Shown here: positions 44,401 to 50,400 of the stretch, piece by piece
Layout of the letters: every line of letters begins with the position of its first letter
How positions within the stretch are numbered: the stretch's first letter is position 1
Assembly (NCBI RefSeq): GCF_029227855.1
Contig: NZ_CP074357.1
DNA from: Escherichia coli
Lineage (GTDB): Bacteria > Pseudomonadota > Gammaproteobacteria > Enterobacterales > Enterobacteriaceae
Direction: 5' to 3' (one strand)
Length of the DNA stretch: 64,000 bases
Made by a program: the position numbers

Positions 44401-47400
44401 AGCTGTTAACAAAGTTTTGTGGATCAGAGATGGTGTTTTATCCACATCATTCAGGTCTGTCTCAAGATCATGAGTGTAACGTTTCATCCAAACTCTCTCA
44501 GGAATAATATCTTTGAGATAGATTAACACGCTTAATTTGGATTATTTTTTGGTTCAGGTTCTAAATTTATTGTGATTATTCTGCCTTTAAGTTGCAAAAA
44601 GATTGGTTTTAAGCCCGCCCATGAAATAATGACTTGTTAAAATACTGCCTGTAAATAGGCTTGTGGATACATGTCTGTACTCAACAAATCAAGGTGAAAT
44701 GATGTTTTTTTTAACAAAGTTACTTTTGCCCATCATGATTGTTGTATTCCCAGTGGCGTCCTGGGGGAACTCAACAACTTTTGAGGCAAAGGTGGTTAAG
44801 ATTGTTGACGGTGACACCATAACTGCGTTGGATGCTCAAAACACAACCATCAAAATACGGATGTATGGTATAGACGCTCCTGAATCTAAACAGGCTTTTG
44901 GCCAAAAAGCAAAACAGGCCTTAACCACAGCTATAGCAACTAAAATCGTTACCGTGATAGACCATGGTACGGATATCTATGGCCGTATGTTAGGTACCAT
45001 CTGGTTAGATGGATATGATATCAATGCCTCTATGGTGGACAGTGGATATGCGTGGGTTTATCGGTTCGAAGATAACGCCATTGTCCCTGGCTATATCAAA
45101 TATGAATCCGCAGCACAAAAGGAGGCAAAAGGGTTATGGGCAGACACCAACCCTGTCCCACCATGGCAGTGGAGACAGGCAAACGAAAAGCCCAGAAAGG
45201 TGAAAGAGAAGAAATAACCATGATGAAAGAGCCTCATCCGTTACTTCAGTTGGTACTAAACGATTCCGGTCGTCTAACCATGCCTGTTTATTATAGAGAT
45301 CAACAGTATTGCCCGACTTGCCTTACAAAGGTGTTGAAGAGTGAGGATGGAAGTTTGGCGCACCTCGGGGAAATAAATCAAAATACATGTAGACCTTCTA
45401 TTTCAGTAGTTGTGACAAAAGCAATTATTGAAATGTTATGTGACGGGGAAAAAATATATGTAAATCCAATACGACACCGAGGCCGGGTGCTGGCACCCTC
45501 AGTAATTTTTTCTCCCGACACTCACACTTTCAAACCGTTTATAAATACAGACTATCAGCCTGTGGGAGCAAACTGGAAAAGTGAAAAGGGATATAAACTC
45601 GGTCTGTTTTATCTCAAAGATCGAGCCAACTCTATCAATAAAGAGGAATTTGATTTCATTGCCGTTATAGACCCTGAGGCAATGCAGAAAGAATTTATTT
45701 CGGCCTGGTCTGAGGTTGATGAAAAAAATCCATTGGAAACGCTGAAGCAGATCTTACGATCTAAAAACAACTCTTCTTTATGGGTAAAATGGCCTGGCAA
45801 AATTGAGCATGCGCAAAAAGGAAATTACAACGAAAATTACTGGTTCGATTATCAATCTGATAATCAGGAAGTGAACTGTACGGTCTCTGTTGTAGGTATC
45901 GAAGGTAACAGTTCCGGTGAGACAATTTATAGATTGCAAACTTTGCTAAAGCGTAAGCTCAATGAATATCAACTGGTTCGGTCTTTAGGGACTATTATGC
46001 TTCTTGATAATACCGGGAATATGATTCCATCAAACCATCCTTATTTTGAAGTCATCTCAAAAGCATGTATAAATGGAGTGCGTGACTTTGTTCGTCAAAA
46101 CCCGTGGGTAGTCTGACGGTCAACTATAAAGCATAATATAATTAGTAATAACAAGGAACAGACATGAATGAAAACTCAGTAATCTTAATAAGTTTATTTT
46201 GGTTTTTTTTGGGATCGAGTGTTGTAGCTGGTTTTATGGATGCATCATTATATTGCTGGATTTTTGCAGCCATAAGCGCATTGTTTCTTCTTTCGGTGAT
46301 ACAAACACCAAAGGAGTTAACGGTATCTATTAGTCATATGACAAGCAAAACGCTGATCTCAAAGACAGATGATGGATACACATTTAGCATTTCACCTTAC
46401 GGAGACGGGTACCGCTTATCAGTCTCGCCTGAAAATCGTCACAATGGTACCCAAAGCTTTGACGGCTGGTTCCCACGTTTTTTTTCCGAACCACAGTATG
46501 CCAAATCATCTTTAACTAAATTTCTCGGTGAGTCCTTAGTATGGGAAGAAGATTCAAGTAATGCTCTATGAGATTACTTATTATAAATTTTTCTATTAAT
46601 CTCCATGGAGTGATATATGAATTTGGCCTATTTTTTATTTTTGTCTATAACTGTTATGCTTACGAGCTTTATTATTAAATCACTTGTCGTATTGGTAAAG
46701 TTCAAATTACTTCGTGATGAACGTCTCGAATATACCAGCAATAAAAATATTGATGAGATGTACGATTTAATGAATGCGAAGGAAGAAATCCTCATAAGGC
46801 ATCATAAGCAGATGTTGGCATTGCATCTTTCACTATTAATATTCGTTCTATTTATTGCTTACATTTACTAAAAATAATTTTATTCAACATTTCAACAAAG
46901 GGTTTTCAATGGAAAGCTTCGAAACTGAACAAATGATTCAATATGCTTTCTACATAAATATCGTAATAACGACTGGTTTGGCATGGTTTTGCTTGCGGTC
47001 AGGATTGCATTACAATTTTTTCAGAAAAGCAGAGAGTGCCAGAACAAAAGGGCTGAGTAGTACCTCTACTGAACACGGTCCAGCAATAGTGAGACTAAAG
47101 AAGCTACAAGCATTAGTAGATTTTATTAGTAACTGTGCTTTTCTAATCCTTTCAATTGGCACAGCTTATATTTTGTATGTTTGGAGCCACAGTTAACTCA
47201 TACGAGGTAACTTCGGCAGGTAACAACTTCTAATGCAGGACTTTAATAACTCTAAGGGATTCTACATGAAAAAAGACGATCTAATTACGCGTTGTAAATT
47301 ACTTAAAGGCGAACGCGATGAGTCTATCTTTACCATATTAATTGGGATAGTAGTAAAGCTGGGGCTGGTAGGCCTGGCATTCTATCTGTTGCTTGGTTCC

Positions 47401-50400
47401 ACGATTGATTGGTCAAGCTGGAAAACTTATGCCGCCATGTTGATCTTGGGAGCATTTCTCTAAAATCTTGAACCTTTTTTCACTCATTACAAGCCATGAC
47501 CTAGTGCGTAGATCATACGATCTTTAAACCTTATGTCATTGATTTATAAGTACATATAACAAAGATTATGTTAAATACTGTATGTATGTACAGCATCAAC
47601 AGTTGCCCCCCTCATATTGAGGTAATTGCTACATTCATACCACTATTCTTCTTATAGTATCGACATCCTGAATTATTGCACCCTACTGCTTTGTCTTTAG
47701 CTGTTCCGAATTAAAATTCATTGCTCAATTTGGATCACATGACGATCAGCGTATTCCTTTGCTTTATCAAAGTTAAGTTTTTAAAACATAAGATATGTAA
47801 TGACAAATTCTCAATCTGATTTTCCTTTGAACGATCAAAATTTTCAGGCAGATTTGCTGAAAATCAAAAAGGTTTTCGCCGACCTTATAACGCAGGCATC
47901 AGATGGTAAGATACCCATAAGGTCTTCTCATGTACACGGCTTACACCATTTCGAGGAGCTCTACATCCGGGCAAGAGCAGGCATGTGTTCGGTCCTGGGA
48001 TATCCGGTCATGGTTGTTTCAACTATCTCAGTTAAAGAGCCCGGCACAGGCATTTTTAGAGCGCTTCTTGCAGAATTGAAATGTATTGCAGATGAACAAA
48101 ATTACATTTTGAAAATTGAAAATGTACTGCCTCCCCTATTCCGCAAATACCTTATTCAAGAAGGTTTTGTTTTCCCAGGTGAACCTTGGATGTGTGGTTC
48201 CGGCTATTGGTTTAAGAACCCACAAGTACTTCATGAAAATATTGAGTTATTATCTGTTTAAGTCGATCTAACAATTTCACTGGAGCTAACATGTCCCCGG
48301 AATTGGTATCAGACATTGCAAGAGTGGCGCATGAAAAGCTACTTTCAATTTTAACGGAGTGCGGCATAGAGAAGACGGCAGGCACTTGCCTTTTTGCAAG
48401 CTATCTTGTGTGTTATTTAGCAAAAACTAAAGGTCTAGATGCTGTTGTCCGTGGGGGTAACGGTGCAGATGATGGCGGTATATTTATAGAGTGTGGTGGC
48501 TTTGGCCATTATTGGTGTGAGTTGAATTTCGAAGAAGTGCAATATTATATTGACATCACTTCCGAACAGTTTGGGTTTCATCCATACATAGTGAAACTCG
48601 CCAACGATATAACAGGATGGCCTCGATATATTCCTGGTGATCAGGAAACGGTCGATAGTCATTTAGAACAATTATTACGCGACGGCTATACAGAATAGGC
48701 TGCGTATACCCTATCGCAGCCTTTCAGGCTCTTAACCCTTGTGACCTGTTAACGGAACCACTCAGGATGACGCTGCCGATCAACTTTGATAACCTGCGAA
48801 TTAAATTCAACGACATCCGCTGGAGTAAGCATTAATTCATCAGGATTTACAATAAATGGTCTTAAAACCACTTCGCCACCGTCTTCTTTTGCACCGTAGA
48901 TATTAATAAGAAAGTGCAGTCGTTGATTTCCTTCAGCATTGCGTTGCCATTCTCTAAAAGTCAAAGTTTGTTTAATATAGTTTGTTAAAAGAAATGCGAA
49001 TTCAGATTCTTCCGTTTGTGAGATACCGATTTTGTTAGACATTTTTTTTAGTATCTTTCCGAGCATGGACACACAGGCATCTAGACTTAACGATGTTGAA
49101 ATTTTGGTCGTATTAAAATCCTCCTGCGAAAGTGAAATCATCCATGTATTATCTTTATGATAGTCGGTAATATAAATAAAATGAGATGTAAAAGGCGTTG
49201 AGTGATTGAACTCTCCTAAGTTCCATCCATACTGACTCACTGTATTTGAGCTAAGTTCTTTGTCGGTAATGTTCATAATTCATACCTTTCGATAAAGTCT
49301 GTAATGATAATTAGCTATCTCAAAGGACCAGAACAACTCTTGAAATAACCACACTCGAAGAATTTATCATATTGAACACCCCTACCTAATAACCTTGCCG
49401 ACTTAATAAATCACAATAGCCCTCCCCTGACATTTTAAAATGCTACTTGAATTTTTGATAGCTTATGGTTGTTTTATGTTCTTTGTGATACGCATATGTC
49501 ATCTTCTCTTTCCAGTACCAATCTTGTAGATCCTGCAAGTCTAGCCCATTTTTCTCACGTATGCTTTCGTGTAATTCGCTAAGCGCGAGTTTATCATTAG
49601 GTTTATAAATGGCTAATTTTTCTTCAAATAAATCCAGCCAACGTTTCCCCATCTTACGACGCAAAACAAACACCATCGTGATAAATGTAATGAAATGCAC
49701 AGCAATTAGTTCCAACTTATGCGATTGCTGACCAGATAAAATTACTATTGTAACAACAGGGATGGCCGTATATAAAGCAATCAAAGCGACCATAAGTTGG
49801 TATGGTTTTTCCCGTATTACCATGTTCATGGGTAAACCAGAGGACGCTACTGCTTGCCAAAATCTTAAAGGGGAGCCCGCAGAATTCGGAAAAAATCGTA
49901 CGCTAAGGTTTTCCGGGCATCCGTAAGGGCCGAAACTTCCCGTCTTCCAGTCTGCGGCTCTGCCGCCAGACGTAATCGCCGGTTAGGTTGATGTGCTCCC
50001 AGCCCAGCGGCGACAGGAATTGCAGCAGCTCGCCGTCCACCGGCTTGCCGGCCTCGACCAACCCCTGGGTGGCGCGTTCCAGGTACACCGTGTTCCACAG
50101 CACGATAGCCGCCGTCACCAGGTTGAGGCCGCTGGCCCGGTAGCGCTGCTGCTCGAAGCTCCGATCCCTGATTTCCCCAAGGCGGTTGAAGAACACCGCC
50201 CTGGCCAGCGAGTTGCGCGCCTCACCTTTGTTCAGGCCGGCATGCACGCGGCGGCGCAGTTCAACACTTTGCAGCCAGTCCAGGATGAACAGCGTGCGCT
50301 CGATCCGGCCCAGCTCGCGCAGGGCCACGGCCAGTCCGTTCTGGCGCGGGTAGCTGCCGAGCTTGCGCAGCATCAGCGAGGCGGTGACGGTGCCCTGCTT

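Follow-up and report, generated by a model that had tools for sequence, protein, structure and literature searches.

A conserved nuclease and orphan gene pair in the IncHI2 plasmid backbone, with a probable link to conjugative transfer

In a 64,000-nt stretch of the Escherichia coli contig NZ_CP074357.1 (here called the window), six consecutive open reading frames (ORFs) on the plus strand, headed by the nuclease gene nuc, occupy positions 44699-47463, exactly as a first-pass annotation made from the sequence had laid them out. The reading modestly favoured here is that the IncH plasmid backbone carries this locus as an accessory operon with a probable tie to conjugative transfer, and not as a dedicated multi-part machine. 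The sole unusual feature of the locus is the deeply conserved coupling of nuc to the gene for an orphan protein, p298. The genes of the locus and the divergently transcribed methylase gene next to it are as follows (aa, amino acids; TM, transmembrane segment; the membrane topologies are predictions from hydropathy).

43060-44529, minus strand: Dcm-type DNA cytosine-5 methyltransferase (Pfam DNA_methylase, E 3.8e-75; NCBIfam PRK10458, 845.7 bits against a cut-off of 710)
44530-44698, no strand: intergenic region between the methylase gene and nuc, the presumed site of divergent promoters
44699-45217, plus strand: nuc, SNase-type nuclease of 172 aa (the RefSeq start is at 44702)
45220-46116, plus strand: p298, cytoplasmic orphan protein of 298 aa, its start coupled to the nuc stop (TAA-cc-ATG)
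46164-46571, plus strand: 135-aa chimeric ORF, with residues 1-56 (46164-46331) from R104, a 2-residue linker, and residues 59-135 (46338-46571) corresponding to R77
46617-46871, plus strand: p84, hairpin membrane protein (TM, charged loop of about 35 aa, TM at the extreme C-terminus)
46909-47196, plus strand: p95, small hairpin membrane protein
47266-47463, plus strand: p65, single-TM protein (76 aa if translated from an alternative, conserved upstream ATG at 47233)

The part of the window between 44.5 and 47.6 kb is IncHI2 plasmid backbone. Region 44500-47600 matched 1143 plasmid records in a megablast search, mostly IncHI2 and for the most part typed as conjugative; 672 of these records, mostly from Escherichia, Salmonella and Enterobacter, showed at least 99% identity, and an identical copy of the locus is found in pSTM6-275, a plasmid typed as IncHI2A/MOBH. 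The six ORFs are separated by gaps of 2, 47, 45, 37 and 69 nt, and a purine-rich run resembling a Shine-Dalgarno sequence precedes each of them, including all the small ORFs, for which such sequences had been noted at first pass. Four plus-strand ORFs of at least 65 aa were observed in 1.38 kb, compared to 0.16 expected, and 0 of 1000 shuffled sequences reached four. RefSeq annotation covers some, and not all, of the small ORFs, and only Nuc, Dcm and a DUF1173 protein were recognized among the six products and four neighbouring proteins when these were scanned with Pfam, PADLOC, NCBIfam and PHROGs. An Rfam scan of 39-50 kb returned no match.

The product of nuc is predicted to be an ordinary Sec-exported SNase-type nuclease with an intact Ca2+-binding and catalytic site, since it shows a full-length Pfam match, a conserved active site and a signal segment found in nine lineages. 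Both the SNase assignment and the signal peptide of the first-pass annotation therefore hold. The match to the SNase family (PF00565; E 3.9e-24, 85.6 bits against a cut-off of 21) extends over profile positions 1-107 of 107, and a phmmer search of PDB sequences returned a thermonuclease (E 1.3e-10). In the alignment to the S. aureus nuclease, the DGDT, R-x4-D-x-P-E and YGR motifs are conserved, and residues D21, R35, D40, E43 and R87 of SNase are kept; T41, which in SNase ligates Ca2+ through its backbone, is the only one replaced, by Ala (RMYGIDAPE versus RLLLVDTPE). The hydrophobic segment at the N-terminus reaches 2.27 in a 19-residue Kyte-Doolittle window (residues 1-23), and a basic residue followed by a hydrophobic core and a small-residue motif (e.g., FPVATLA/TQ in IncHI1B) is present in 9 of 9 lineages. 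The ratio of nonsynonymous to synonymous substitution (dN/dS) in nuc is 0.08-0.18. Nuclease genes of this type are very common on plasmids, and a tblastn search found nuc homologues in at least 5000 plasmid records, including IncP 'ParB' (39%), IncC (37%), Klebsiella and Acinetobacter plasmids.

In nine lineages, the gap between nuc and p298 ranges from -8 to +17 nt, which agrees with the close coupling of the two genes that had been proposed. A p298 homologue follows nuc in every nuclease-bearing IncH-like locus seen (i.e., IncHI2 variants, IncHI1, IncHI1B, and the metagenomic relatives L005, L006, L008, L012-L015 and L017), and the pairing is retained in L015 and L017, where p298 is just 20-22% identical to that of the window. 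The nuc genes of pLVPK-like Klebsiella plasmids (50% identical) and of IncC plasmids (37% identical) have no p298 next to them. Because nuc is solitary in these two other plasmid types inspected, where the first-pass statement that plasmid nuc genes usually stand alone held true, the pairing with p298 is a peculiarity of IncH plasmids.

One possible explanation of the pair is that p298 is a cytoplasmic inhibitor or holding chaperone, co-translated with Nuc and neutralizing it before export, as in barnase-barstar or NucA-NuiA. This explanation is improbable. In 1205p1, IS1203 lies in p298 at residue 72 with nuc intact, and the same two-piece match with this same insertion sequence (IS) was seen in three further records, which makes four records with the pattern; around the insertion at p298 codon 72, as recorded for L035 (NZ_CP012141.1, 721-2927), nuc and all of the small ORFs are intact. 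The IS1203-split p298 thus represents a natural knock-out in IncHI2 plasmids from Shigella, Salmonella and E. coli, several of them typed as conjugative, and because nuc is intact where p298 is disrupted, p298 is not an obligate nuclease inhibitor. The nuc genes of the Klebsiella and IncC plasmids that lack p298 argue against immunity as well, as do two p298 relatives, P0069 and P0070, which occur without an SNase gene. The isoelectric point of p298 ranges from 5.5 to 8.7 across lineages, so the protein is not a DNA mimic. Moreover, SNase-type enzymes need millimolar Ca2+ and should be nearly inactive in the cytoplasm. A toxin-immunity pair, for which an indispensable inhibitor and strict co-occurrence would be expected, was rejected given the split p298, the lone nuc genes and the lone p298 relatives.

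The gene encoding the Dcm-type methylase is found upstream of nuc in all nuclease-bearing IncH-like loci seen; it is divergent and adjacent in all of them except L017, where it lies about 2 kb upstream with three genes in between. The sequence between dcm and nuc is conserved within IncHI2-like plasmids only, with no motif conserved beyond them in the alignment, and a consensus promoter scan of this region was not above chance.

Expression data that bear on these genes are available for the IncHI1 plasmid R27, for which a microarray study listed R0154 as a 'cytosine methylase' and the adjacent R0153 as a 'partition protein' (PMC7366339). The single Dcm gene of the R27 record adjoins that for the thermonuclease, after which come a p298 homologue and a phospholipase D (PLD)-family gene, and we infer from this gene order that R0153 is nuc, R0152 is p298 and R0151 is the PLD-family gene. 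The label 'partition protein' presumably reflects the likeness of this nuclease to the RP4 ParB nuclease. The fold changes given for these genes (PMC7366339) are listed below, first for 25 °C versus 37 °C and then for the htdA mutant at 25 °C.

R0154 (putative Dcm): 4.7x; 11.1x
R0153 (putative nuc): 2.9x; 15.6x
R0152 (putative p298): 1.9x; 16.3x
R0151 (putative PLD-family gene): -2.1x; 13.5x

According to the authors of that study, R0153 was induced under all conjugation-promoting conditions (PMC7366339). The array covered R27 (IncHI1), and for this plasmid the data suggest that the HtdA/TrhR-TrhY transfer regulon includes the putative genes for the nuclease, p298 and the divergent Dcm. The IncHI1 PLD-family gene encodes a 259-aa protein with an HKD motif and no signal peptide, and is located directly 3' of the p298 homologue (L004, 7487-8266; R27 [L022], 20639-21418).

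In the orphan protein p298, a CPxC...H...C element near the N-terminus is followed by an alpha/beta domain in the centre, a loop at residues 194-216 that is disordered, and, at the C-terminus, a sheet of four strands with a helix. It had no match in Pfam (E<=0.1), PADLOC, NCBIfam or PHROGs, its family profile matched no PDB sequence at E<=10, and no known fold and no PD-(D/E)xK-like structural match were found. The p298 family comprises 34 clusters among 5.8 billion proteins, and an exhaustive profile search found 25 relatives among 1.84 billion representatives, none of them annotated; in the genome scan, p298 was found in Enterobacteriaceae only. Across the extended family, only P93, W119, G124, W188, E234, L261 and C283 are invariant, with no known catalytic motif among them. 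Given these few invariant residues and the lack of a known catalytic motif or fold, p298 is probably non-enzymatic.

A loose likeness to CoiA had been noted for the CPxC element, which was placed at the very start of p298 in the first-pass annotation and is actually found at residues 30-57 (CPTC...H...C). The CxxC is replaced in the relatives P0022 and P0023 and lacks the proline (C-A/T-T-C) in P0019, P0021 and P0024; P0062 has an altered N-terminal region, and the shortest relatives, P0070-P0074, have none of it. Since CPxC is not conserved in the family, the resemblance to CoiA (PF06054) fails; what the two proteins share is a superficial CxxC...H...C spacing near the N-terminus, and with neither a profile match nor a PD-(D/E)xK match, CoiA was rejected as a candidate.

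Among the genes of the block, p298 is the fastest-diverging: the p298 proteins of the window and L015 share 20% identity, the nuc products 49% and the neighbouring products 57-64%. In one plasmid pair, synonymous divergence (dS) rises from 0.10 in nuc to 0.35 in p298, and this abrupt jump points to allele exchange at the gene boundary. Two further observations concern the surroundings of p298 homologues. The C-terminal domain of p298 (residues 226-293) recurs as a partial second copy, at 34% identity, about 1 kb 3' of the full gene in L008 (9985-10188) and L009 (2845-3048), and large Big_3/DUF4165 immunoglobulin-like proteins adjoin p298 homologues in the two distant loci L006 (8976-11408) and L018 (4836-9816). 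The Big_3 domain type is shared with RSP, a protein exported by the type IV secretion system and required for IncHI conjugation.

The rapid divergence and the dS jump would fit a role of p298 as an establishment or anti-defence factor, acting in a new host or on transferred DNA alongside Dcm, with the nuclease a mere neighbour in the transfer-induced transcript. Under the putative R27 gene assignment, p298 is co-derepressed with the tra regulon and Dcm, and it adjoins an orphan methylase, a known anti-restriction device (PMC11541004); its relatives stand alone in other plasmid backbones, its fold is an orphan one, and, on an IncHI2 plasmid free of the resistance insertion, the block and the relaxase are found on opposite sides of a gap near mobI, the presumed site of the origin of transfer (oriT). 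This role is nevertheless doubtful, as p298 bears no likeness to known anti-defence proteins, the block is about 20 kb from the presumed oriT, plasmids in which an IS has knocked out p298 persist nonetheless, so that it is dispensable in this respect, and the strict coupling of nuc and p298 would be left unexplained. A broader version, in which p298 founds an undescribed family and is a transfer-induced establishment or anti-defence factor working with Dcm and the exported nuclease, with the hairpin proteins contributing to the same envelope-level DNA exclusion, is rather unlikely.

Downstream of p298, the first-pass annotation had described a fixed string of four small membrane proteins. As judged from their substitution patterns, the small ORFs are genuine coding genes under purifying selection, but one of the four is not a native small membrane protein, and the string is not fixed. 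In informative comparisons, dN/dS is 0.09-0.33 for p84, p95, R85 and R104, with values of 0.09-0.31 for p84, which is intact in L010, L011, L012 and L014, and 0.13-0.19 for p95 against L014. Homologues of R77 and p95 can be recognized at the protein level in IncHI1 and IncHI1B, whose DNA has diverged here beyond alignment. Conservation at the codon level (dN/dS of about 0.1-0.3) together with these IncHI1 protein homologues thus supports the first-pass view that the small ORFs are coding. Constraint is weaker for p65, with a dN/dS of 0.3-0.85 on few sites.

The 135-aa ORF is the product of a deletion. R478-type IncHI2 plasmids carry six small genes, of 104, 85, 77, 84, 95 and 65 aa, and when the window is aligned to one such plasmid (L010), it lacks 530 bp (L010 4833-5362) at position 46331/46332. 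The DNA lost comprises the 3' half of the gene for R104, an ancestral membrane protein of 104 aa, and all of R85, which encodes a membrane protein of 85 aa; codons 1-56 of R104 are thereby joined in frame to the entire gene for R77, a soluble acidic protein of 77 aa. The deletion junction shows no microhomology. The chimera keeps the two N-terminal TM segments of R104, and the fusion allele, present in the 672 of 1143 records with at least 99% identity, is the commonest IncHI2 form in the database. R77 stands alone, at 52-62% identity, in IncHI2-like, IncHI1, IncHI1B and L005 loci.

Among the remaining small genes, p84 lacks RefSeq annotation in pSTM6-275 and has distant relatives (28-30% identity) in L013 and L015. 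Homologues of p95 (99 aa, 33-35% identity) are located 3' of the nuc pair in IncHI1 and IncHI1B, and the p95 family consists of 25 clusters, all of IncH type; a search for wider families of R77 and p95 likewise found IncH-type proteins only. Despite their common TM-loop-TM layout, p84 and p95 gave a profile-profile probability of paralogy of 5.6%. The p65 gene was found only in IncHI2-like loci and is absent from pYD786-1; it is interrupted by IS903B and ISVsa5, in one plasmid each (L036 and L037). Gene content also varies among IncH lineages. L012 has a different small-gene order, L011 lacks p65 and has a damaged 104-aa gene, and L013 retains as its sole small gene the distant relative of p84. 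In L015, the p84 homologue is found 2.3 kb away, past opposite-strand genes, and R27, pHCM1, L006, L008 and L027 have no small genes, save a 44-residue remnant of R77 in R27. The 187-aa and 180-aa TM proteins of L013 and L017, respectively, showed no detectable relation. In L017 (4092-6399), the pair is followed by the 180-aa protein, which is N-terminally anchored, and by two exported proteins of 250 aa (one with a lipobox, one with a TolA-like match); these envelope proteins are a different set in the same position as the IncHI2 small ORFs.

Could the small proteins and the nuclease together form a barrier to DNA entry? In an exclusion or anti-phage system of this kind, hairpin proteins would block DNA translocation at the inner membrane and the periplasmic nuclease would destroy the stalled DNA, as with T4 Imm and endonuclease I. 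Consistent with such a system are an exported nuclease and two-TM proteins of 84-95 aa encoded on the same strand with no terminators, the purifying selection on the small genes, the recurrence of the p84 family near the pair in the distant loci L013 and L015, and the precedent of YokF, a thermonuclease of a mobile genetic element that blocks DNA acquisition. However, no small protein had a PADLOC or PHROG match; with PADLOC-DB v2, Nuc partly matched the candidate 'SNc+LTD' model (E 3.2e-11), and p298 and the four small proteins gave no match at E<=0.1. The set of small genes differs per lineage and is missing altogether from five of the plasmids and loci named above, the loss of R85 and half of R104 has not kept the lineage of the window from being the commonest IncHI2 form, p65 has been struck by IS elements, and the L015 homologue of p84 is separated from the pair by opposite-strand genes. 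An exclusion system is thus quite improbable.

The size and two-TM topology of the hairpin proteins also resemble those of class II holins, and their genes are directly 3' of that for a secreted nuclease, so that they could be imagined to permeabilize the envelope and release Nuc from the periplasm to the medium, similar to Serratia NucE and type 10 secretion. This is highly improbable: Pfam identified no peptidoglycan hydrolase or endolysin in the cluster, no holin family was matched, many plasmids with nuc and p298 have none of the small genes, and Nuc has its own Sec signal. Across Pfam, PADLOC and PHROGs, none of the small proteins matched families of holins or of exclusion or defence proteins. 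The module envisaged at first pass, for exclusion, abortive infection or export, is thus left with no family match (PADLOC, PHROGs and NCBIfam), and proximity alone links the small proteins to the nuclease; exclusion, abortive infection and holin-like export are all unlikely, the more so given the variability of the tail. Overall, the earlier observation was partly confirmed and its interpretation partly supported.

The favoured reading, an accessory operon probably tied to transfer, suggests the following mechanism. Under transfer-permissive conditions, the plasmid would raise Dcm, and CCWGG sites would be methylated on the DNA about to be transferred. The non-specific nuclease would be exported at the same time, to the periplasm or the medium, and, where Ca2+ is available, it could destroy unprotected extracytoplasmic DNA, such as extracellular DNA in mating aggregates and competing naked or foreign DNA, and would stay inert in the low-Ca2+ cytoplasm. 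The cytoplasmic, probably non-enzymatic p298 would be co-expressed with the nuclease without being required to tolerate it and would have a role of its own, which may lie in establishment or anti-defence. The hairpin membrane proteins would represent dispensable, exchangeable cargo of a variable region 3' of the pair.

Several points weigh against this reading. The very tight and deeply conserved coupling of nuc and p298 is left unexplained if the function of p298 is independent. The assignment of the R27 gene numbers is a putative one, made through gene order and the 'partition protein' label. Moreover, R0152 changes just 1.9-fold with temperature and R0151 in the opposite direction (-2.1-fold), so co-transcription is putative as well. 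Promoter and terminator scans were at chance level, and the small genes could form a unit of their own behind a promoter-like site at 46113-46142. Literature searches by RefSeq accession, by the name 'EcnA' and for thermonucleases of IncHI2 plasmids turned up no functional study of these genes, and the pJXP9 and pSTM6-275 papers do not discuss the locus. Whether the block belongs to the leading region depends on the direction of IncH transfer from the presumed oriT, and the biological target proposed for the nuclease is a guess.

The pair is part of a wider block, consisting of genes for a DUF4942 protein, a coiled-coil protein, DUF1173 and a small ORF, followed by Dcm divergent from nuc-p298, which was seen in IncHI1, IncHI1B and metagenomic relatives. 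In the window, the corresponding features, and the ORF that ends the backbone stretch 3' of the locus, are as follows.

39178-44529: upstream IncH backbone block with a DUF4942 protein, a protein of about 400 aa, DUF1173 (minus strand), a 55-aa ORF (minus strand) and Dcm (minus strand)
49903-51723, minus strand: 606-aa ORF, transposase-like by eye

The protein of about 400 aa has faint or weak precomputed matches, in relatives, to coiled-coil Pfam families. GC content declines stepwise along 41490-47463 (0.49 in DUF1173, 0.47 in Dcm, 0.44 in nuc, 0.40 in p298 and 0.30 in p84), and dS for one plasmid pair differs several-fold from gene to gene across this segment; together, these patterns suggest that the AT-rich tail is a recombining mosaic. 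In pLVPK-like Klebsiella plasmids, a DUF1173 pseudogene is retained, divergent from their nuc. Downstream of the locus, the 135-aa ORF at 48291-48698, distinct from the chimera, is another unannotated IncH-type backbone gene; in L005, a relative with 38% identity to it occupies 576-875 on the opposite strand, past DUF1173. In pSTM6-275, the resistance region (EamA transporter, tet(A) and a class 1 integron) starts about 2 kb past the point equivalent to the 606-aa ORF. Elsewhere in the window, seven ORFs of identical length (240 aa) with a TTG start are found at 2391, 6764, 24720, 29295, 32895 and 56953 (plus strand) and at 58765 (minus strand); they resemble copies of one candidate insertion sequence structuring a multiresistance region.

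IncHI2 and IncHI1 plasmids are major carriers of mcr-1, of extended-spectrum beta-lactamases and of typhoid multidrug resistance, and most of their backbone is annotated as 'hypothetical protein'. The analysis presented here delimits a conserved two-gene core, apparently in the transfer regulon, apart from a dispensable and shuffling tail of small membrane genes, and it removes two tempting annotations, that of p298 as CoiA-like and that of the pair as a toxin-immunity unit. Should the nuclease or p298 aid transfer, establishment or the exclusion of rival DNA, these proteins would be targets for limiting plasmid spread; otherwise, the locus is ordinary accessory cargo. The practical gain is a corrected annotation, which treats the 135-aa ORF as a deletion chimera and recognizes the genes of 84 and 95 aa, often uncalled, as real.

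Among known systems, the closest relatives of the IncH nuclease are those of the SNase family (PF00565) on other large conjugative plasmids, namely RP4/IncP 'ParB' and the IncC 'thermonuclease family protein', which share with it the fold family, the catalytic and Ca2+-binding residues and the signal sequence. The IncH enzyme, known from its sequence, differs in having a coupled orphan gene of about 300 codons on its 3' side and a divergent Dcm, whereas the IncC and pLVPK-like copies inspected have no such partner. A similar arrangement is represented by Nuc of the IncN plasmid pKM101, a periplasmic endonuclease that is encoded within the transfer region and co-regulated with it. Like IncH Nuc, it is Sec-exported, non-specific and associated with conjugation genes, with an unproven role in transfer; unlike IncH Nuc, it belongs to the phospholipase D superfamily and not to SNase, and it has no p298-like partner. 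The PLD-family protein encoded 3' of p298 in IncHI1 plasmids lacks a signal peptide, unlike the periplasmic pKM101 Nuc.

Two systems of Gram-positive bacteria provide further parallels. The establishment (leading) regions of pLS20-family plasmids encode a C5-methyltransferase and an SNase-like thermonuclease (PMC8708921), and thus, as in IncH plasmids, the same transfer-linked region combines an orphan cytosine methylase with an SNase-type nuclease; the accompanying genes are unrelated, however, and for IncH the leading region is a candidate assignment. YokF, a membrane or secreted thermonuclease of the Bacillus prophage SPbeta, blocks nanotube-mediated plasmid exchange (bioRxiv 10.1101/2025.10.26.684598). 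Both YokF and IncH Nuc combine an SNase domain with a signal peptide on a mobile element and would act outside the cytoplasm, and YokF is a case of one element destroying incoming DNA. In YokF, whose phenotype has been demonstrated, a modulator is fused to the nuclease as a C-terminal domain, whereas in the IncH locus, known from sequence, a bare SNase domain is followed by a separate gene on its 3' side.

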